NCBI GenBank assembly: GCA_017654855.1
Contig: CM030334.1
Span: 496,001 to 560,000, forward strand
DNA length: 64,000 bases
Origin: Podospora anserina
Lineage: Eukaryota
Direction of reading: 5' to 3'
The notes beneath the pieces are model-generated. The model was not told the origin of the DNA and searched no databases. It saw only the letters and a program-made list of their open reading frames with translations. Numbering within the stretch: position 1 is the first letter of the stretch; every line of letters begins with the position of its first letter. Shown here one piece after another: positions 16,768-29,900 of this stretch. Position numbers and translations under genes: made by a program.

Positions 16768-17380
16768 AGAGCTCAAGAGCCAGAGACTCGGCGAAATCAC
16801 TCTCAGCATGGACCCTGCATACGGCTCATGAAGAGCCCCTGAATTGAGGTCGGATCGACGGGATCGAGAGTTGTGGAAATCGAGAATGGCCGTGTCGCAG
16901 TCGGCGTTCAGGGGCAGTCGCAGACGGGCTACGGGGTCGGAGCCGGCGACCGGGGTGGGTTGGCCCAGATGGTTCGCTGTTCAGGTACCGGACTCGCAAG
17001 CCCCGCAAAATCCCATGCTATCGAGAGCAACCTTCCGGAACCGTTCTTGAAAGGCCGTGGATTGCCAATGAAGATCTGGCCGGTTCCAGTTGAGCTCAAG
17101 TCTACAGTGGGTGTGCCTTTTTTTGACCTCATGAATGATACTCTGGCGAGCTACGTGCTTGCTGCATTGCAACAAGCAAGCACCAGTAGCAACGGTTTGT
17201 CAGTGTCGTGCTACCCTCCACATGCACCTTTGTCTCCCAATGTAACCTCAAACTCGGGCAGTTTGAAGTTTATGCTCTCGACACTCGAGATGCCCGGGAA
17301 AACACCACACCACCACCAGGCCACGGAACAATTGTCAAACGGCCAAACGGTTAGACGGCTTCCCGGGTAAGAGCGGGCTG

Positions 17381-17404
17381 TCTCTCTCTCTCTCTCTCTC
17401 TCTC
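17381..17404. repeat. (CT)n microsatellite
   Basis: Uninterrupted TC run. Confidence 0.9.
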
Positions 17405-17726
17405 GGAGGAAATACCCAAATGCCACCCTTCGGAAGGTGAAATGGGAAATTAGTTGCATTATCAGTGCTGCCCCTGGTCTACTTCGGTTGGATGATGAGC
17501 TATTTGGTACTTTGCTATGCAAATTAGATATGTTCAATATGCATACTCTCTGTATGTGTCTGGTGTATGTACGCGTCCTTTTGTCTTGTGGTTCGTTCGT
17601 CGTGATGAAGTGGTATCCAGTAACATGCTTCCATCAATACCCTCAAATTTCCTTTTTCCAAAAATAGTTTTATTTTTGGCGATGTCTTCTTCTCCTCTCA
17701 TGCTTGCGTCCTGAGTTGAGCCGAGA

Positions 17727-19273
17727 TCATGAAGCACACAATGCTCCGACACCGGTAGAATGGTGAAAGTCAAAAGCCTTTGTCATTCCGTATAAATGCG
17801 AGGCCGCGGCAAGCAAGACAAAGAGGTGGAAAAGCTGATGAGAACTTCCAAAGATGTCAAACTTTCCTGGGAAGCGACGCTCTGGGAAACGAGCCTATTC
17901 CATGTCTTTTCGTCAGTCTTCAACCTCTCTTTCCCTGTCCGCACCGATCTTGGTAACACAGGGAGTGCACCCGCAAACAGGAGAATACTGACCGCATATA
18001 GGAACGCTCCAAAAATATACAACGCCCCTTGGAAGATGACCCAGTTAAGACCCATTCTTTTGTTAAGCTCGTCGTATGTGTAGAGAGTGATTAACGCATG
18101 GATAATAGGCAATACCCCTGAGAGACCCAAAGACACGAACATGAGGGCACGGTAAGGCCTCCAAGCGGGAGTGCGGAAGTGGTCGAACCACGATACCATG
18201 ATGCAGCCAGAGCCTAAGAGGCAGATCTGTATCGGTTCAGTCAGCTTCTCTTCAACGTCAAAACACCAAACACCTTCCCCCCTATCCAACCGTGCCCCTT
18301 TTTCGTCCAACAAGTGTTCCCCCATCCCTTCCTTACTTTTTCACAGTGACCCCTATTTTCAACGGCACCGCGCCTTTCCCCTGGCTATCTTGCGAACAAC
18401 GCCACCAAAACCTCAAGCGAGAACACTATCACAACAACTCGAGTGAGAAGCCCCAGGTCTCTAGCGAGATGACTTCCAAAGGCTCAAGTGAGAGCGACAC
18501 TGTTCCCCTCCTTATACAGATTTCCCCCATAACCTGACCAACAAGCACACACATTTCCCCTTCCATCTTTGCACAATCCCAGCCCAATTCTTCAAAACAG
18601 CACTTTCCCCTCTATCTACCTTATGTCCCCCCGCACACGTCCTACGAAACAAAAGACCCTCAAGAAAAAACGAAGAAAAACTTACCGCTCCCAGATACAC
18701 CGTCAGCTTCCCAGGCTCGCACCAAAACCCATACCACAGCGCCGGCACGTAACTCCCCACTATCAAGAAAACGATGCCGGTGTAGTCGAGCTTGTTCCCC
18801 CACTTGGCCACCTTGTCCGAGTGGTTGCTAATCGCATGGTACGTCGCGCTCATCCCCAGGCACAAGAAGGCGCCCGCGAAAAAGCAGGAAAACACCAAGA
18901 TGTCGGCCGAGGAGGCGGTGTCAAAGCGGGGGTGGATCAAGCGATACAGGTATGCGGCCAGAATGACGGAAAAGAAGGCGCCGAGGAGGTGAGACCAGAT
19001 GTTGACTGATTCGTTGTGGAGGTAGAACAACGACCTGAAGGAGGCGCGGAAGGAGTACGAGGTTGGGCGGTAGCCGCGGAGGATGGAGGGGTTGTCGCGG
19101 CGCCATGGCTCAAGTTGGTCGAAGAGGAGGAGTTCGAGCCTGTGCTCGATGTCGGTGGCGGTTTGGACGATGGTTTCGGTGAGGGAGGGGCGGCGTTTGC
19201 GGAGGCCGGAGCCGGTGCCGGTGCCGGAGCCTGGACCGGTGGTGGCGGGATTTTGTTTGGCGGGGCCGGGCAT
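17727..19273 (-). CDS. PAQR/haemolysin-III family membrane protein (IZH/adiponectin-receptor-like)
   Basis: WRRDNPSILRGYRP, LHNESVNIWSHLLG, SATYHAISNHS, KLDYTGI, PGKFDIFGSSHQLFH, ending ...GALCAS*. Introns lie at 18227-18685 (459 nt) and 17895-17992. Confidence 0.93.
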
Positions 19274-20071
19274 GGCGGTTGAAGGGACGGCTGGTCGGCT
19301 GGCTGACTACCTACCCACTTTGGTGTGACAAGTGTTACTCTGGAGGTGCTCAGAGGCAAGAAAAGGGGCATGTAACGATATTTTGCATTTGTTGTGAGAC
19401 TGGCTTCTGGGTTACCATCCGATCTTTACTTGATTTTATGTCTCTGTTCATGAACATACATATCGCTGTTCTGCGGGATGATGACGACGACCAGATAGAC
19501 CAAGAATCCATTCCCTGCCAACAATGCTTCAAGATGGCATGGTTTGATGTGCTGTCTGGGCGTGGTTTTGTTGGGATTTCGAGTCGTTTGAAGGCTGTCC
19601 ACCTGGCAGAGGTTGAGCGAGATCCACAATAAATGCCGAGGCCGCCGCAAACTGGGAGGAGCCGTTTGCATGTGGGAGCAGTTGCCAGCTTCAGCGGTCT
19701 CTACCGTAATTGACCCCGCTGTTAGTAGCTGCCTGCCCGTGCACCGCAGAGCACTAACGGGGTGTGCCATACTCCATAGGTACGTAGGGATAGGTACTCA
19801 ACACCATCGATGGCCTCGACCCCCCAGGCTCCCCAACTCAACCTCTCAGAAATTCACAATGACGCGGCCCAACTTCCTTTACCCAGCCAAAGGTCCAACC
19901 AATATTTACCAGCTACCAGCAGATTATCCCTTTACCAAAAGTCACCGTTCACAGTGCTACCATTTCCGTTCGCTTTCATTCCGCGGTTCGCTGTTCGCTT
20001 ACCTGTCCTTTCTCTCAAATCGCTTCCAGCAGCAAACGGATGTTCGATGCCGATCAATTGCACGGCATCAC

Positions 20072-20687
20072 AATGAAAAGCTCTAGCCCCAACGGAGACC
20101 GATCCTCCATCCTGACCAAAAGCAAATATCACGGCATTTCTCACCCTCAACGCCCGCAGGTGCACACCAACCACCAGCTCTTCCCAAAAACTCAACGCAA
20201 CGGTGTCATGTCCCTGGCATATTACCTGCAGACCCCGATAGTGAATGTGGGCACACAAATGGAACCATACACTGATGAGTCGGGTCTCGCCCCAGAGCAG
20301 TGTCGTCTTCGTTTCCTGGAAACAGATTACCTCTGGCAGAGAAGCTCGGGCGTTGCTACCAGCTGTTCTTATTACACGCCACTGTCTCCAGATACCCGGA
20401 TCAACGAGAACCACGGTCAACTCTATTTCTATTCTTGGACATGCCAAAAAGTTCCCTGTGGAACCCTTCCATATGATGACCAACGACGACAAGTGTCAAC
20501 TTCAGACTACCAGTCGGTTGTGGTGATGGCTTCAAAGATCGCATCGCCAACATGCGCCAAAGTGAAAGTGCAAATGCACTCCATCTCTTTCATAAGAGCC
20601 GATGCAGTGCGGCTTAAGAACCGCAGCATTTCACATTCTCATGCCCGTTTTCCCGGCCAGCCCTTTGGTCTTGGCTATCCGATGTAA
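20072..20687 (+). CDS. Possible orphan ORF (~200 aa)
   Basis: Open frame from an ATG near 20072 to TAA at 20685-20687. It contains no recognisable motifs and may be non-coding. Confidence 0.2.
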
Positions 20688-21433
20688 CAGCTTTGAATCG
20701 AGTCTCCTGTCTAGTGGACAACTACCGCCATCGCGCGTGCGGGCTAGGGAGTGAGAGCCAGCGTTCTCTCTGGAGGTTGGGTGAGGAGAGGACTTGGAAA
20801 TCACGACGGTGTCGGTCCAAAAATAGCAAGGCTCCTCCCGCAACTTTGTGTTCAGAGTCAACTCGGTTTATTGCGGCCTTGGACCGCCGATGACCCAAAC
20901 TGGCTTGACTACGCTATGGATATAGGCACAATTATTCACAGTGCAACCTTACTCTGGGGTTGTTCACTTATCGTCGTGTCTGGGCGCCTGACCGAGACTG
21001 GCCCATGGCCAAACGACGCCTGTTGACGGCCCCGGATAAATAAGCCGAACCATATCGCCATTTGGCTCTCACCCTCGTTGCTTCATCTATTCCATATTGC
21101 TCACAGATTGTCGCCACCAAACTCACCTCCACAGCATCAACCACATCACAGCTTCGGGCGTTCCTCGCGTTGTTCTGGGAGCGGGGCCGGTGCGTCGATA
21201 TCATTGCAGGCTTCTATTAATACTCTCACCGGGGGTTGTGGTGAAGATGGCGACACTGGATATGCCATGGCGAAACGGGTGACGGGCAGGGGACGGGAGA
21301 AGGCGAGGATTGTGTATATCAACACATGGGAACCGCCACCTGATCCGGGCTCTTGAGATACACGACGTCAATCGTGAACCCTCAGGAGTCGACAACGATA
21401 TCTCCCCCTCAAAACCAGCTCCGCCGCCACATC

Positions 21434-24400
21434 ATGGCCGGATCTGTCTTCGCCCTGTCCCTTCTCGGCCTGGGCGCCGTTCAAGCTGCTCCATCGGCCC
21501 CGACTGTGGAGACTCGGCAAATCTGGATCGGAGATGGTGGAGGCGTGTTCTGGCCCGGCCCCGATCAACCCATTGCACCCTGTCTCGAGAACGGCTCCGG
21601 CGCCCCTCAGGCTCCATGCCTCCTCCCACCTATCCCTGGTGATGTTACCCTTCCACCCGGATTCTACCTCCCTCCCAAGGACAAGAGAGACGCCGAGTCG
21701 GTCGATAAACGTCAGATTTGGATTGGCGATGGCGGATCCCAGTTCATCCCAGGACAAGGCCCTCTCAAGCCTTGCTTGGTGACGATCCCCCTCAAAGGTC
21801 AGCCGCCGTGCTTGTTGGGACCAATCCTCACCGTGCCCAAGAACAAGAGAGGCGTCGAAGCCCGCCAGACACTCATCATCGGAGGCCCTCCGGGCTCTTT
21901 GAACCCTGGCAACCCAGGCCTTCCCGGGGGTGGCATGCCCGTCTGCCTGCCGTCTGTGCCGCTTGACCAGCAGCCTCCATGCATGCTTCCGCCCATCAGC
22001 GGCGGCGGTGGCGGGCTCATCCTGCCTCCCAACTGGCCTGCCCCGAGTTTCCCGCCCAAAGAGAAGCGGGAAGCCGAGGCCCCTAAGCCACCCAAGCTTA
22101 CCCTCCCGCCTGACTATGCGACCAACACCAAGCAGGTGATTGTGCGACTGGAGGCCCGCCTCGTCGCCTTGCAGAATAAAAAGTACAAGACCAAGCAGGA
22201 CATCGAGTTGATCAAGGATCTCAAGGAGGCTCTGCTCTACTTGGCCGGCATCACCAACATCTCAGCACCCCCTGGAACCGGTACTTCTTTTACCCCAGGA
22301 AAGCGCAGCGAGGACGTCTTCCAGCTCCTGCCCCCCGACTACATCACCAACACCAAGAAGGTCATCGAGACGCTGCAGAGGGAGCTGATCGTCCTGCAGA
22401 ACAAGAGGCGCAAGACCAAGGATGACATCGCCAAAATCCAGGCTATCAAGGATGCGCTTCTCTACCTGGCCGGCATTACTCACATTTCAGCCCCCCCCGG
22501 GTCTGGCAGCACCTTCACTCCCGGGAAGCGTGATACCTTCAAGCTCCCCCCTGACGCCACGACCAACCCCAAGAGGGTGATCGAACAGCTGGAGAAGGAG
22601 CTGATCGCCTTGCAGAACAAGAGGCACAAGACCAAGGAGGATCTCCAGCTCATCGCTGATTACAAGGCAGCTCTCCTCTATCTGGCCGGCATCACCAATA
22701 TCTCGGCCCCCCCTGGATCCGGGAGCACCTTCACTCCCGGCAAACGTGATGTCTTCAAGCTTCCCCCCGATGCTACCACCAACCCCAAGCGCGTCATTCA
22801 ACAGCTTGAGACAGAGTTGATCGCCTTGCAGAACAAGCCGAACAAGACCAAGGCCGACTACGAACTCATCGCCGACTACAAGGCCGCACTTCTTTACTTG
22901 GCCGGCATCACCAACATCTCGGCGCCCCCCGGGTCAGGCTCCACTTTTACCCCTGGCAAGCGTGATGCCGTGTTCAAGCTTCCCCCTGATGCTGCCACGA
23001 ACCCCAAGAAGTTCATTGTGCAGATCGAGAAGGACCTTGTGCTTCTCCAGAACAAGAAGAACAAGTCCAAGGCGGACCTCGAGCTTATTGCTGCCTACAA
23101 GGCTGCCCTCCACTACTTGGCCGGGATCACCAACATCTCGGCCCCCCCTGGGACTGGAACGAGCTTCACCCCGGGCAAGCGCGACGTGATCTTCAAGCTC
23201 CCGCCTGATGCTGCTACCAACCCCAAGAAGTTCATTGTTCAAATTGAGAAGGACTTGGTGGTCCTGCAGAACAAGAAGAACAAGACCAAGGAGGATTACC
23301 AGCTGATTGCTGCTTACAAGGCTGCTCTTAAGCACCTTGCCGGCATCACCAACATTTCCGCGCCGCCTGGGTCAGAGACTTCCTTCACTCCCGGCAAGCG
23401 CTCGCCTGTGGTTGATGTCAATGCCGTTGGCGCTTATGAGAAGCTTTGCCCCAACATCAAGGGTGCCCAGGATGCCCTCCAACAGATGCTGCTCAAGGAC
23501 CAACTCACTGCCGAAGAGATGGTTGTCGTCCGGGCGCTTATCAACTTCCTCAGGGGATGCGGCGTTGAGCCCGGCGAGGGTCCCAGTTATGGCCCTATCT
23601 TGACGGTTCCAAAGCGCAACACCCCGGTGCTCTCTGCCGAGTTCGACCTTGCCGGTCTCGAGGAGGCCTACAAGGAGCTTCTCACCACAGCACAGCTCGC
23701 TACTGCTGCCGGCCAGCCCTCCTTCGCCAACTGGATCACTCTCTCCACCATTGCTGACATCCTCGAGCTGTATGGCGTGAAGGTCGACCGCTCCCTTCAC
23801 GTTCTCACCCCTCTGCCGAAGCGCCAAGCCGACAGCATCACCATTGGTGGCCGGACCTGCAAGGTGATTGACATTCTTGGCCTCCGCGCTGCCCTTGCGG
23901 CTCTCCAGATTGCCTACGGTGAGGACGTCACCAAGGCTCCCACCACCATCTTCCTCATTCAGCAAGTCATTGTCACCGCGCTTCAACTCTGCGGCCAGTC
24001 AGTTCCGGGCTGGACCGTCATCGTCCCTGGCAATCCCGTCCCTGGTGGTCCCATTGTTCCCCAGCCCACTGTCCCCGGCGGACCTTTGGTTCCCGAGCCA
24101 AACGTCCCCGGGTCGCCTGTCGTTCCCCAGCCCACAATCCCCGGTGGTCCTTTGGTTCCTGAGCCATACGTCCCCGGCGCGCCCATCGTCCCTCAGCCTA
24201 CCATTCCGGGTGGTCCACTCAAGCCTTCGGACAAGAGGCAAGCTCCTGGTCTGAGCAACGCGACAGAACTTCTTGCTGCGCTCAACATCCTCGAAAAGGC
24301 ATACGGCACATACGGCAGCGGGACAATCCCGGTGCCTGTTTGGTTGATCATGGTGAATTTGGTGACGATTCTGCAGACGATTCCGGGAACGGTGGTGCCC

Positions 24401-24451
24401 GGGTGGCCAGTCTTGGGACAGGGTAGCGTTGTTTTGACTCCGTCTCCTTAG
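21434..24451 (+). CDS. Secreted Kex2-processed repeat polyprotein (1005 aa, intronless)
   Basis: Signal peptide MAGSVFALSLLGLGAVQA, regularly spaced KR sites including KR-EAEA and KR-DAES spacers, six tandem repeats ending FTPGKR, and C-terminal Pro-rich 11-aa repeats. Third codon positions are strongly C/G biased. Confidence 0.92.
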   Translation: MAGSVFALSLLGLGAVQAAPSAPTVETRQIWIGDGGGVFWPGPDQPIAPCLENGSGAPQAPCLLPPIPGDVTLPPGFYLPPKDKRDAESVDKRQIWIGDGGSQFIPGQGPLKPCLVTIPLKGQPPCLLGPILTVPKNKRGVEARQTLIIGGPPGSLNPGNPGLPGGGMPVCLPSVPLDQQPPCMLPPISGGGGGLILPPNWPAPSFPPKEKREAEAPKPPKLTLPPDYATNTKQVIVRLEARLVALQNKKYKTKQDIELIKDLKEALLYLAGITNISAPPGTGTSFTPGKRSEDVFQLLPPDYITNTKKVIETLQRELIVLQNKRRKTKDDIAKIQAIKDALLYLAGITHISAPPGSGSTFTPGKRDTFKLPPDATTNPKRVIEQLEKELIALQNKRHKTKEDLQLIADYKAALLYLAGITNISAPPGSGSTFTPGKRDVFKLPPDATTNPKRVIQQLETELIALQNKPNKTKADYELIADYKAALLYLAGITNISAPPGSGSTFTPGKRDAVFKLPPDAATNPKKFIVQIEKDLVLLQNKKNKSKADLELIAAYKAALHYLAGITNISAPPGTGTSFTPGKRDVIFKLPPDAATNPKKFIVQIEKDLVVLQNKKNKTKEDYQLIAAYKAALKHLAGITNISAPPGSETSFTPGKRSPVVDVNAVGAYEKLCPNIKGAQDALQQMLLKDQLTAEEMVVVRALINFLRGCGVEPGEGPSYGPILTVPKRNTPVLSAEFDLAGLEEAYKELLTTAQLATAAGQPSFANWITLSTIADILELYGVKVDRSLHVLTPLPKRQADSITIGGRTCKVIDILGLRAALAALQIAYGEDVTKAPTTIFLIQQVIVTALQLCGQSVPGWTVIVPGNPVPGGPIVPQPTVPGGPLVPEPNVPGSPVVPQPTIPGGPLVPEPYVPGAPIVPQPTIPGGPLKPSDKRQAPGLSNATELLAALNILEKAYGTYGSGTIPVPVWLIMVNLVTILQTIPGTVVPGWPVLGQGSVVLTPSP
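22070..23401 (+). repeat. Six coding tandem repeats (~216-237 bp; 72-79 aa)
   Basis: Each unit reads LPPDxxTNxKxxIxxLExxLxxLQNKxxKTKxDxxLIxxYKxALxYLAGITNISAPPGxGxxFTPGKR. Confidence 0.95.
24041..24226 (+). repeat. Coding 33-bp (11-aa) Pro-rich repeats, ~5.5 copies
   Basis: PGGPIVPQPTV / PGGPLVPEPNV / PGSPVVPQPTI / PGGPLVPEPYV / PGAPIVPQPTI / PGGPLKP. Confidence 0.9.
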
Positions 24452-25574
24452 AGTGGTATCGGGGTTGGGAGTGTTATATGATATCCAGAGAAGAAGGCGG
24501 CGAGACAAAAAGGGGGCTTGATTCAGCGATGGGTCGGGTTTGCGGGTGGTGCTAAAATCCCCTTTTTGAAGTCTTTTTATTTATTTTCTTTTACTTTGTT
24601 CTAGTCAAGCTCGAGGTGTATCCCTATTTTTCCTTGACACACGCGCGTAATCTTTTTCGCGTCTGGTCTTCCCTGTTCTTTTTAGGCTTGATTGACTCCT
24701 CTTTTGTCTTTTGACCTGGTCTTTCCAGTCCAGGTACCATCTGTTCGTGACTGTGCTCTCAAGGTGCTGGTTAAGCTTATAGCTTCATACCATTGATACA
24801 GGGCTTTGCTTGCCATCGGTGATATGCCTTTTAGATCATGATACATTCCACGTGAACCCCCTGATCTCTTTCGTCTCATCACGCATGGTTTACTTCCATG
24901 CCCGGTTCAACAGCGTCAGCATTGGATAGTTACAGTAGCTCGCCCGCCATGAGACAGCACTGATCAAGTGGAAACACATGTCAAATCCTTTCATCTCAAC
25001 CCTTGTCGCCGTCTTACTTACTCATATGAGAACCTAATCTTCATATTTTCACATAAGAATACCACGATCTCCTGTCGCAACAATAACAACCTCCCAGTAA
25101 CGACTAGAAACTTCTCTCCGCATTACGCCCATCGCCTCTAAACCTCCTGCCATCAAGCTCCCGGCGTCATTCCCCCCCAATCGCTTGAGATCCTGTAGTG
25201 GCAATTTCCTCCGGGGATCCTCTCAACGGCTGGGTCCAAGGCTGACAGGTATATACTTCTGACACGTCCCCTCCCCACAGATGCCGTGGTCTAAGATCGT
25301 CACTCCACGCCGTCAGAATGGGTCGACAGCGTGAAACTCAATACTTCTGTCAAGGGCTCAAGCTACCGAGCGACGAACTCCCACATGACATTACCATCAG
25401 ACAACCGTGGCTTAAAATGGGTTGAGGGGGAAGATGACTCGTCCGTTTATCGGGATTCCCCGCAGGCCGTTGCTGAATCTATGTTGGTGTGCTTCTACGC
25501 GTAGGGATCGTATCGTCTCAGCCACAGAGGACTCGCGAGGACTTCGGATGCAGGCTTTATGCTTCTCACGACTG

Positions 25575-26677
25575 GGACCTATTCACAATTCTTGACCTAC
25601 GTTCGACCTACGCTGGACCTACGATGGACCTACGATGGACCTAGCTGGGCCTTGGTGTCTCTTTTTCCAGCGGTCTTTGGACCTATCCTGGACCTTTTTG
25701 GACCTAGAATAATCATTTATCGGACCGTTGGGCCTTTCCTGGACCTGTTTTTCCCCCCCCCTTATCCGAGAGCTGTTCAGCCCTCTTGCCACCCCCCCAA
25801 GACTAAACCTTCTGGTCTAACTGAAGCCACTCCCCAAGCTCCGGAGAAGCTAGGTCCAACGCGATTGCATATACAAGTCCATGAGGTCCATTAGGTCCCT
25901 TTATTTTTTGTTTTGGGGTTCACAAGACAGACAGCTCCCTAGGTCCGCGCCACGTTTCACGCGGACCTAAAACGACTGGACCTAACGGTCAGAAAACTCG
26001 GGAGCATCTCCTCGTCGCTTGGTTTACTGAGGCGGACGACCAACTGAAGCCCCTTAGACCCATTGGCACTCGGTTTTGTTCTCCTGTAGGTCCCCACTCG
26101 TAGGTCCAAACGGGGGGGGGGGCGTGTGTGTGATGGATGGAGGACGTCTGGTGTTTACTTTGCTTCCATTTCCGGATGCAGCCAGCCCCTTTTACCACTT
26201 CCCCCCTTTGACCGAGTCTGAGAGACATGTAGACAACCTTGGAATCATGCAGAGGGGCCGCGCTCTTCTCCCCGGAACCGGCACTAGGTCCGGTAGGTCC
26301 CTTTCGCCGTCTCCCTCACGAGCACCTGACCCTCACAGCAACGGTTCGTGTCGCATCCTGGACGGACCTAACTCTCTTGTTCATGGACCTACACCACCAA
26401 CCCACATCTGATCAGTCAGCAGCATCTTTTCCCTCCCGTGGAAAAGCTGTGCCACATCTGCCTAGGTACGGTAGCCCCTCTCCCTGTCTTCTCAACTCAC
26501 ATGAGCGACCGGCCGCATGCAGCTCCACCGTCTCTACTGCGCAACAAAAGCCTGCCGGGTTTTCCTCAAATTCACAATCATGCATCATGGATGGATGGTG
26601 GTGTGGGTTGTAGGCAAGGACCAGACCATAGATCGAAAGCATCTGGACCTTTTCCCATACCACCGTAGTGTAGGTCC
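25575..26677. repeat. Dispersed GGACCTA/TAGGTCC motif field with an 11-bp tandem array and a 10-bp inverted repeat
   Basis: I counted 18 exact 7-mers in both orientations. TGGACCTACGA-like 11-bp units run ~25591-25645, and TAGGTCCGCG-N10-CGCGGACCTA lies at 25940-25969. Confidence 0.85.
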
Positions 26678-26929
26678 AAGGCAGATAGAAGAAAACCACG
26701 CCATCAACCGCTTTTTTCAAATCAAGTTTCTTTTCTTTTTTTTTTCTTTTTTTGGGTAAGGGGGGGGGCGGACATATGGGGTGTGTTTGATGAATACCGT
26801 CGAGATAGAGGGGAACAAGCCGGGCATGCCGGCAGTGTCTCCTACTGGTTTTTCTAGTAACTGGGCACACATCTCCACAAGCAAGTGGGTTGATATTGCA
26901 TGCTGCATCATGCTGTGCGGCAACCGATA

Positions 26930-26931
<2 letters not shown>

Positions 26932-26967
<36 letters not shown>
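26932..26967. repeat. (CT)n microsatellite
   Basis: Long TC run. Confidence 0.9.
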
Positions 26968-26971
<4 letters not shown>

Positions 26972-29900
26972 AGAATCTGGAGATAGCCACACAGGCAGAC
27001 AGACAGCTATGGTGGAGAGATAATAGGGAAAATGCCCGTGATAGCCGGCCACACACACCACCTTTAGTTTGAGGAACCAAACCAAATTTGCTGTTGATGT
27101 GGTAGGTAGGTAGTATGCGGAGAAAAAGAGTCAAAAGACAAGAAAACTGAAGAGTTGCACTGCCACACCAAGGCATGGTCTGGTGGGAGAAAGTATGTAC
27201 GCCAAGGAGGCGAAAAGCAGGAAACGAGATCCATCATGAGCATGTTTGTGGCTTGCCTATTTTACCCCGTGCTCTGCATGTTTTATCGACGGCTATACTC
27301 CGGTCGTTGGAGCTGCTGTGCATGAGGTCTGAGAGGCAGCAATCTGCAATCCTCGTAGGTTGGTTGACTCAGGCACCCGCCTACCAGCCAAGAGGGAGGT
27401 CGGAGTCGTCCCAACTCTCTTTACCTGAGCGGTGTGATTTAGACTTCCAGAATAAATCTCCATTCCCCTAGCTTTTGCCTAGGCAGTAGTATACTTATGC
27501 AAGATTCAACAACCTGGGCTGGAGGTATGCCGGCCGGCTGGTTCATCACATCTTGTCCAGTCCCTCCTTGGTGATCTTGGTCAAGATCTCTGCGGTCATC
27601 ATTGTTCGGATATTAATTCCGGCAGCACACATGATGATGATGACTGTGTCCGCTCCTACACAGAGTACGGACTGACAAGCTCACACTTGTTGAGACGGAC
27701 CGGACCGGGCTTACTCTCCGCGCCGCTCACCTTGGTGTTGGTGTCAGCCCCCAGACTCTCTCTCCGCAATATATGTAGGTTCGTACATAGGTCTGTCGGC
27801 GGCGTGGAGCTTACCGCAGACAGAACCGAACACGGCATAATATCAATGTGTGCGCTTGTGGCGCTGTTCACACTCAAATGTTTCCAAAAGCTTCGCAAGC
27901 TCCATGAAGAACGTCTTGATATCCCCATTCAGGCATGACTTTCACACCTTGGATCGTCAACAGCTGGAAATCAGAATCGGACTGGTGATAGCGCACCAGT
28001 AGCGCAGGTAACACCACGTCTTCCGTCTGCACCAGACCTGCAAGCCTGCGCCTTGACGGTTCAGATTTCCCCTTTCTTTGTCTCGTGCAGCATGGGAAGG
28101 CGGACTGGACTTTCAAAGACCCAGAGCCATATCACCCAACCCACATGCCATCCCAATATCAGAACAGGATGCATTGCCGACAAGCCGCTGCGTGTCTCTC
28201 TCACTGGTCGACTTCCCATCTTCACCGCCATGTTTTCCAAAGCCCAATCGAAAACGGCGGCGCCGGGTGGTTGTGCCTTCATGCATCTGCAATCGTTTGC
28301 TGCTTGATGGTTGACAGTCGCTGATTGGTGTCTGGGCCAAGAAAGCCGATGATGCAGCAAGAAAGAGGTGCTGTGTGGCAGCCCAAGCACGCTCCGGCGG
28401 GGACGCTAATGCAAGCACTTAAGCACTCGCGTCTTGATCCCCTCTCTGTCTGTCTTGTCTTGTCTTGTCTTGTCTGGCCTGTGGTGGCCCAGCTGGGAGC
28501 GGTTGCATTCGGGTCTGTTTCTTGTTCAGGCTTTGGCCCTGTCTTGTTCTGGTCTTGGTTTTCTTTGCTGATAAGCAAAAAAAGAGAAGCAGGAGAAGGC
28601 CCGAGGGAAGCTAGTGTCAGAACCCCGCTTGGGTATTGTCAAAGTGTCATGTCAATCGCTTGCTGTCAGTGCTAAGACAGGCTACGCACGGTAGGTCGCC
28701 TTTTTTGGCCACCCGTCCATCATCACCTCACCGACACCGAGGCCTTGGGAGAGGCGGCCCGGCGTTTTTGTTTCCTTTGTTTTCCGCCAGACCGGTTCCA
28801 AGCGAAGAGCAACACGGGAGAGAGAGAGATAGCGCCATCCACAGAGGCGGGACGGTTGCTAGTGACGAGCAGGAATTTCTCGAATTTCTCAGCAAACAGA
28901 CAAAGAAATGAGCAGTTATTCAGATTGGGGGAGGGCCGATGACGCGATTTGTTCAAGGGGAAAGTGCCTATCACGTGTGGGCTGCCCCTCCGGTTCTGTC
29001 GGTCAAAGATCTGAGTAGGTCGTGTCGTATGCTGTAGACAAGAAGGAAAAAACTCTTCGGGTCACACACTGGCGAAGATCAGGAGAGGGAAATTTGTCGA
29101 GGCCAATCTTGGCGCCACTGGGTGTCATTGTGGTGACCAGTGGTGGTTGGAAAAGAGGGAAGCTGGGAAAAGGAGGGGCACGAGAGAGAGAGAGAGAGAG
29201 GTTGGGCCGATGGAGGGGTAAGTCGATGAGCAGCTCTGAGTGGCCCATGCTCCACCACACCGCCTGCTTTTCCCCCTTCAGTTATGAGATGAGGTGAAGC
29301 GTGAGGCTGCCAGCCATCATACTACAGGTATCATAACAAATAACAACCTGATCGACTTACTGGGTTGCAGCGTAGGCTGTAGCAAATAGCGCGCTTGCCG
29401 GAGAAAGCCCACCGCCTTCTCTGACTCTACAATGTTAATTTACAACTGCATCTGGGTCCTGGGAGAGATCACCGTCTGATTGGACCTCAGCACAGCACGC
29501 CACGTCGCCCTACATTTCTGGACAGCAGCATATACATCCGTACCATGCGCGCATGCATCATTCATGCATGCATGCAGCCCTAGATTTTTCCCCCTCTTCT
29601 CACTTGCCCCGATGTGACTGGTCCTCTACGCCCGATTGTGGTGCTGGTGTGGTTGCGGTGAGGTCCATAGTGGGTGGTATCGCCAATCTCCCTTCCACCA
29701 CACAGCAAATAGGATGAACGGGTTGGGTGGAAGGCTGGCCGATGCGCGTCACCCAGACTGTTTCCTTCTGTCCCGTGCCTTTGTGACCTCGTCCGACGGG
29801 CGTAGATTGACTGAGATATCGGGACACAAGGTGTGTGACAGTGGCAACTGCAACGCGAGGCGACGGCACACTGCAACGGTACGGTACTTGTTTTCGACAG

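Follow-up and report, generated by a model that had tools for sequence, protein, structure and literature searches.

A 64,000-nt stretch of the Podospora anserina genome (assembly GCA_017654855.1, contig CM030334.1, positions 496,001 to 560,000 of the forward strand; hereafter the window, whose coordinates are used throughout) carries six tandem protein repeats at 22070-23401. An earlier note, made from the sequence, had described them as basic helix-loop-helix hairpins that would be released by Kex2-type cleavage and could bind membranes or self-assemble. What kind of gene encodes these repeats, and what would the released units be for?

A repeat block in the middle of a large precursor

Read in frame, 22070-23401 corresponds to aa 213-656 of a 1005-aa open reading frame (21434-24451, + strand), less than half of the encoded precursor. 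Judged from sequence, this block forms the central part of a single large secreted precursor with the layout of a KEX2-processed repeat protein (KEP), whose modules run in the order signal peptide, three A peptides, six B hairpins and the further hairpins C, D, E (followed by a Pro/Gly tail) and F. The earlier note had overlooked that the four segments downstream of B appear to carry the same domain. All modules lie on the + strand. A putative signal peptide (about aa 1-18; boundary inferred from hydropathy, KD19 1.63) and a short pro-segment ending in ETR (aa 19-28) occupy 21434-21517, followed at 21518-22069 by the three A peptides (aa 29-85, 94-139 and 145-212), which start with Gln, are rich in Pro and Gly, contain two Cys each and are separated by short acidic spacers. 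The predicted hairpins are B1 (22070-22306, aa 213-291), which starts with an EAEA Ste13-type spacer, B2 (22307-22531, aa 292-366), B3 (22532-22747, aa 367-438), B4 (22748-22963, aa 439-510), B5 (22964-23182, aa 511-583) and B6 (23183-23401, aa 584-656), then C (23402-23617, aa 657-728; net charge -3), in which a Cys pair flanks the two helices, and D (23618-23824, aa 729-797; net charge -5). Module E (23825-24238) comprises a hairpin with a Cys pair (aa 798-872) and Pro/Gly-rich 11-aa repeats at 24050-24216, and no helix of the precursor is more hydrophobic than that in F (24239-24448, aa 936-1005; KD19 1.87). The second helices of D, E and F are hydrophobic (mean KD 1.1-1.8, with 0-2 charges), against 0.55 for B5 and -0.17 for B6. 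The number of 11-aa repeats after E varies widely across the family, and they are strongly expanded in some thermophilic Chaetomiaceae homologues.

The precursor gene was the sole match in the 36-Mb genome when its own protein and two distant homologues were used as queries. No intron was seen: in three of four runs a single unspliced contig spans the full coding sequence (20834-24714, 21118-25487 and 19851-24685), and among the pieces listed for run X21 only one, of 172 nt, falls on the gene, which we do not take as evidence. Since the neighbouring gene has spliced joints and a poly-A end in those three runs, and their depth is low at 25700-27300, we read them as RNA and the precursor gene as transcribed and intronless, with contigs that carry neither strand nor expression level. 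These contigs continue beyond the coding sequence by up to about 1 kb (ending at 25487 in one run and at 24685-24714 in two others). The RNA at 24452-25500 suggests that the 3′ UTR is long or alternative, or that a separate transcript lies there.

The neighbouring genes are of housekeeping type (PAQR/HlyIII, WD40, kinases and a P-type ATPase among the 21 window ORFs scanned), and a kexin gene (Peptidase_S8 plus P-domain) is found on contig C1 of the same genome. At 16900-19600, upstream of the precursor gene, a spliced transcript of the + strand (GT..AG joints 17911-18002, 18043-18109 and 18947-19020), which in one run has a poly-A loose end at 19521, overlaps the PAQR/HlyIII gene on the - strand (CT..AC joints 17893-17992, 18226-18686 and 19399-19460); the two look like a sense/antisense pair.

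Sequence conservation of the B repeats

As first reported, there are six in-frame units, each ending in the near-invariant tail ISAPPG-x4-FTPG-KR. Their 68-aa cores align without gaps, with 37 of 68 positions invariant, pairwise amino acid identity of 0.60-0.90 and nucleotide identity of 0.67-0.80; TRF detects a 219-nt period (5.7 copies, score 962). Synonymous divergence exceeds nonsynonymous divergence in all 15 pairs (pS 0.45-0.66, pN 0.08-0.26), and the block is therefore an old protein-level repeat under purifying selection rather than a chance arrangement. Units 3 and 4 share an amino acid identity of 0.90 at pS 0.66, yet nucleotide identity between B repeats never exceeds 0.80. A nucleotide identity of 0.80 lies near the threshold for repeat-induced point mutation (RIP), and no RIP signature was found in 22070-23401 (TpA/ApT 0.55).

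The finer sequence claims stood up for the most part. The helix sequences given for the repeats match unit 3 exactly, the NIS sequon is present in five of six copies (HIS in unit 2), and internal dibasic sites occur as NPKR in units 3 and 4, NKRR in unit 2 and NKRH in unit 3. The Lys-rich loop is real, but its formula NKxxKTK does not extend to unit 5, which reads KSK, and units 4-6 have three further loop sequons (NKT/NKS) that had been overlooked. The label ‘basic’ is weak, as units B1 to B6 have net charges of +3, +2, +1, 0, +3 and +3 with 6-8 acidic residues each.

Comparison with 155 distinct B units from the family removes several of the properties that had been read into the local copies. 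The median net charge is 0 (range -10 to +8), with 81 units at or below 0 and 37 at +3 or above, so that a cationic character is not general; the consistent positive charge expected of a cationic amphipathic antimicrobial peptide is lacking (0 to +3 here, family median 0). The tail sequon occurs in 48 of 155 units, which does not amount to a conserved glycan. Internal KR or RR is present in 61 of 155, and the idea of copy-specific sub-processing was set aside, the internal Arg following a conserved Lys at variable positions and being present in 15% and 22% of units. Amidation, suggested from the G-K-R ends, also fared poorly: Gly precedes the dibasic site at 205 of 233 B ends but at 2 of 76 C ends and 5 of 81 D ends, and a review (PMC6529398) describes the amidating enzyme PAM as absent throughout fungi. 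A profile search of this genome gave no PF01082 match (the control was likewise without signal) and one PF03712 match, a Rho-GDI. Gly before KR is specific to B ends, and amidation could still be specific to B; a Pro-Gly cap that stops trimming would be a simpler account of TPG-KR.

Modules B to F as one family of hairpins

Profile comparison with HHalign connects the modules at high probability (B-C 97.8%, B-D 94.0%, C-D 97.4%, D-E 95.9%, D-F 96.4% and E-F 98.5%), with C the closest paralogue of B, against 0.2-1.1% in eight reversed-profile controls. Direct alignment of B with E or F fails (13% and 18%), and the A peptides could not be aligned to the other modules. Modules B to F are thus predicted to be one hairpin domain family, which gives this precursor ten paralogous hairpins.

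The AlphaFold model of B3 alone (pLDDT 67.7) bears out the proposed helix-loop-helix hairpin, with two helices at residues 13-28 and 35-56 (pLDDT 72-83) and a low-confidence tail; a Foldseek search, proposed as a companion check, returned no specific fold (best E 0.87), and the best VIA match (Z 6.9) was among generic hairpins. Helix 1 of B3 is amphipathic (moment 0.49). Helix 2 of B carries a conserved stripe of Ala42, Ala46 and Tyr49 beyond its core residues, a candidate partner surface, and self-assembly of B hairpins is plausible. A complex prediction for four B3 copies, run without alignment use, gave a score of 0.03 and a mark of 0.32, values that weigh neither way on binding.

The chain from B5 to F was modelled as six hairpins (pLDDT 75, pTM 0.60; C-F helices mostly 85-95, linkers of low confidence). 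Modules D and E (model residues 223-346) align structurally with four-helix bundles (rmsd 3.4-4.0, Z 4.3-5.6, 104-114 residues superposed), scores that assign no family and are taken as evidence of packing in the model only. That arrangement is a common one, and neither the D nor the E consensus has a conserved ExxH, the di-iron ligand motif of ferritin-like four-helix bundles. Residues 159-474 align to seven-helix bundles over 151 residues (rmsd 5.5, Z 5.5). B5 and B6 each match only on their own, so that B may not join the modelled C-F core. The whole B5-F model has no specific fold match (Foldseek best E 1.1, VIA best Z 5.7 and 5.6), and the uncleaved solenoid envisaged as the contrary outcome found no counterpart in these searches. 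Since fold searches covered B3 and the whole B5-F chain, the C-F part alone could have a known fold. The best PDB sequence match had E 0.005 over 47 positions, and ESM Atlas queries gave no usable match, a result that bears on neither novelty nor absence of relatives. Two Pfam matches, DUF3853 (23.2 bits, cut-off 22.1) and, in one homologue, PSII_Pbs27, were rejected because they pass only by adding up weak repeats.

Homologues across Sordariomycetes

Homologue searches returned overlapping sets of 31, 98, 104 and 82 proteins, from which low-complexity Pro-rich noise (5 identifiers and 22 of the last 23 matches of the 98-protein search) and near-identical cluster members were dropped for family counts; two fused models and four weak matches were further excluded from the profile and piece-end counts. 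Named homologues come from Sordariales, Coniochaeta, Phialemonium, Phaeoacremonium, Thozetella, Xylariales, Verticillium, Colletotrichum, Stachybotrys, Cephalotrichum and Zalerion, the closest being 1005-aa proteins of the Podospora anserina complex. By sequence comparison, the homologues are spread across Sordariomycetes, saprobes and pathogens alike, and are strongly conserved. No functional name is attached to any of them; nearly every one is annotated as ‘hypothetical’, and the handful of other labels (prefoldin, fused models) seem to be automatic.

Among 149 proteins examined, 147 contain modules, and A+B+CDEF is the commonest architecture (58 of 147). Copy number per protein ranges from 0 to 7 for A and from 0 to 6 for B, with six B units only in this precursor. 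Two copies of C are found in no protein, of D in four, of E in one and of F in one; repeated E calls arise from the Pro/Gly tail and are not taken as extra hairpins. D is accompanied by E in 113 of 115 signal-bearing D proteins, a count in which the tail inflates the E calls. In Verticillium and Colletotrichum, the smallest members consist of D+E only. B is the sole hairpin type in 25 of 170 signal-bearing proteins, some of them partial models; in P0053 and P0070 only B-type hairpins were called (5 and 3 copies), with A and C-F not called. Four Xylariales members (P0061, P0071, P0197 and P0200) have hairpins that combine an E/D-like Tyr-Gly loop with a B/C-like tail and look like intermediates between module types.

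The cleavage layout proposed for the B units holds throughout the family. KR or RR is kept at 83 of 87 A|B, 126 of 130 B|B, 78 of 78 B|C, 70 of 74 C|D, 76 of 89 D|E and 67 of 80 E|F linkers (84-100% depending on the linker type), and 135 of 146 Met-starting homologues have a hydrophobic N-terminus, as scored by hydropathy. At least two Cys are found in 227 of 230 A units and 88 of 89 C units. Predicted pieces share their termini: 753 of 1095 end in hydrophobic-x-Pro-[GSDTN], against 48 and 65 in two controls, and 410 of 908 start with hydrophobic-x-hydrophobic-[GP], against 47 in the control, both patterns having been picked after inspection of the data and the pieces not being independent. 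The C-terminal pattern fits 8 of the 13 pieces of this precursor. Gln starts 336 of 908 predicted pieces.

Comparison with known systems

The precursor has a hydrophobic N-terminus, repeated KR/RR-bounded units (six B, three A) and a kexin in the same organism, the features by which KEPs are recognised. With the KEPs described in PMC6339444 and PMC7329392 it shares the signal peptide, KR-bounded repeats, a Ste13-type spacer and Gln starts, and it differs in its folded hairpins of about 70 aa, its several paralogous types and its fixed single-copy tail. Le Marquer counts 2 KEPs for P. anserina (PMC6339444), and this gene may be one of them; the motifs of the precursor were not found in the supplements searched for that paper, and nine orthologue accessions are absent from Umemura Table S2 (PMC7329392). 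A search of main texts, mostly of open-access papers, found general work on KEPs but no published description of the family, which is apparently an undescribed variant of the KEP precursor class.

The Rep1 repellent peptides of Ustilago maydis reportedly form amyloid-like fibrils. They resemble our favoured functional model in being Kex2-released repeats that assemble into structural surface material, and differ in that the units here are predicted to be alpha-helical hairpins, a comparison by description and not by sequence. Candidalysin is one short cationic lytic helix, whereas B has two helices, is near neutral and is amplified. PMC9769878 describes fibril formation by the Kex2-released, KEP-type Rep1 peptides and, for Candida albicans Ece1, which contains candidalysin, a polyprotein of non-identical KR-bounded pieces, some of them hydrophobic, as here. 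Dikaritin RiPP precursors of the ustiloxin type also combine a signal peptide with Kex2 repeats, but the cores here are far longer and no UstYa/DUF3328 gene lies on this contig (none of at least 18 genome matches on C4, and none among the 21 window ORFs scanned). Animal amidated prohormones share the G-K-R ends of B; fungi are described as lacking the amidating enzyme (PMC6529398), and Gly is largely confined to B ends. A hydrophobin was rejected, as the eight-Cys pattern is lacking (B has no Cys here, and A, C and E have two each) and there is no Pfam match; so was a bHLH transcription factor, given the secreted layout and the lack of a Pfam HLH match.

Expression of homologues

The Podospora name of this gene is presumably Pa_3_1520, as inferred from orthologue locus tags and the naming convention. 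In PMC4835503, the Pa_3_1520 row is blank in all four bacterial-challenge columns, which we read as not regulated and which speaks against an induced antibacterial role. The Verticillium homologue VDAG_03441, a D+E-only protein without a B unit, has FPKM values of 267 in conidia, 24.7 in germinating conidia and 4.3, 16.1, 26.9 and 32.6 in microsclerotial stages, and appears in the paper's down-regulated list (PMC4035056). Its enrichment in conidia fits a spore-surface role. For the Sordaria orthologue SMAC_08584, PMC3472292 records expression in each of eight samples, and none of the four comparisons calls it differential; its counts vary greatly (1181 in the first column, 45 in the second). 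These data give no support for a spore-specific role and are neutral to adverse. Otherwise, locus tags in the main texts of open-access papers yielded nothing except one T-DNA insertion table row for VDAG_03441, which is absent from the one supplement of PMC3852263, and the main text of bioRxiv 2024.12.09.627484 makes no mention.

Proposed mechanism and alternative explanations

We give about an even chance to the reading that the precursor supplies a cleaved kit of co-assembling hairpins that forms a coat or matrix on the spore or hyphal surface. Cleavage, assembly and function would, as we infer them, run as follows. Cleavage of Kex2 type very probably takes place: Kex2 would cut after each KR and Kex1 trim the basic residues, Ste13 would trim EA or DA starts, and Gln starts would cyclise to pyroglutamate, as in the KEP biology outlined in PMC9769878. 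Processing would yield about 13 pieces, with Pro-rich ends resisting exopeptidases. From the model and the conservation, the hairpins may be half-bundles that pair non-covalently, D and E forming a four-helix core on which C and F would pack, although this packing is predicted for the covalently linked B5-F chain and not for separated pieces. B could be a soluble subunit of variable dose that pairs with itself or extends the core, and the copy number of A and B would tune the amount of material per transcript. That four of the five hairpin types, C to F, are kept almost always single points to assembly after cleavage rather than simple amplification. The least certain step would be the last, a structural coat or extracellular matrix on spores or hyphae. 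More tentatively still, the family may represent a new kind of fungal surface material, in which Kex2-separated paralogous hairpins reassemble as a C/D/E/F core of fixed stoichiometry, with A and B at variable dose linked via terminal motifs that the pieces have in common; on the spores and hyphae of Sordariomycetes it would be the alpha-helical equivalent of hydrophobins and repellents.

Yeast killer toxins are likewise Kex2-processed, and the precursor could instead encode a multi-subunit membrane-active toxin or antagonism factor, whose hydrophobic D, E and F helices stay buried until insertion into a target membrane and whose B units act as carriers, chaperones or lytic peptides. The hydrophobic second helices of D, E and F, the amphipathic helix 1 of B3 and the Kex2 processing shared with candidalysin (PMC9769878) fit such a factor, but it seems unlikely to us given that B is near neutral across the family, that the Podospora orthologue shows the blank bacterial-challenge row in PMC4835503, and that single copy and strong conservation in saprobes and pathogens would be unlike most toxin loci. 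The modelled four-helix packing of D+E with hydrophobic inner helices and the Pro-rich tail retained in most members would also suit a soluble carrier or emulsifier, in which paired hairpins are apolar-lined bundles binding lipids, phenolics or hydrophobic surfaces and the Pro/Gly tail binds polyphenols. HsbA-like behaviour is the model for this role, which we regard as quite improbable: the conidial enrichment of the Verticillium homologue (PMC4035056) agrees with it, but there is no Pfam HsbA or lipid-binding match, and it leaves conserved cleavage at every linker and the amplification of B unexplained.

The residue after KR is Asp at 90 of 233 B ends and at 52 of 76 C ends, Pro precedes KR at C|D in some Podospora-group relatives, and C to F fold together in the single-chain model, as might be expected of a largely uncleaved or partly cleaved wall protein arranged as beads on a string. 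Against this stand the dibasic sites at 84-100% of each linker type, the shared piece termini, the frequent Gln starts, the low-confidence linkers and the lack of any solenoid match, and we think it has only a slim chance of being correct. Slimmer yet is that of a pheromone- or hormone-like signalling precursor, possibly amidated: the repeat-and-KR layout, the EAEA spacer before B1 and the Gln starts recall one, but the units here are predicted to fold into domains of 70 aa, fall into six types and are conserved across orders, Gly is not kept in the paralogous modules, and PAM is described as missing in fungi (PMC6529398).

Implications

Most described KEPs give short identical peptides; this family appears to give folded domains of about 70 aa that fall into five related types, of which four stay single-copy across orders. 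It is encoded by a single-copy gene in genetically tractable saprobes and has a reduced D+E form in Verticillium and Colletotrichum, with conidial enrichment in the one expression table found. If the family builds a coat or matrix, it would constitute an additional fungal surface system; a multi-subunit lytic factor would instead represent an additional system of antagonism.
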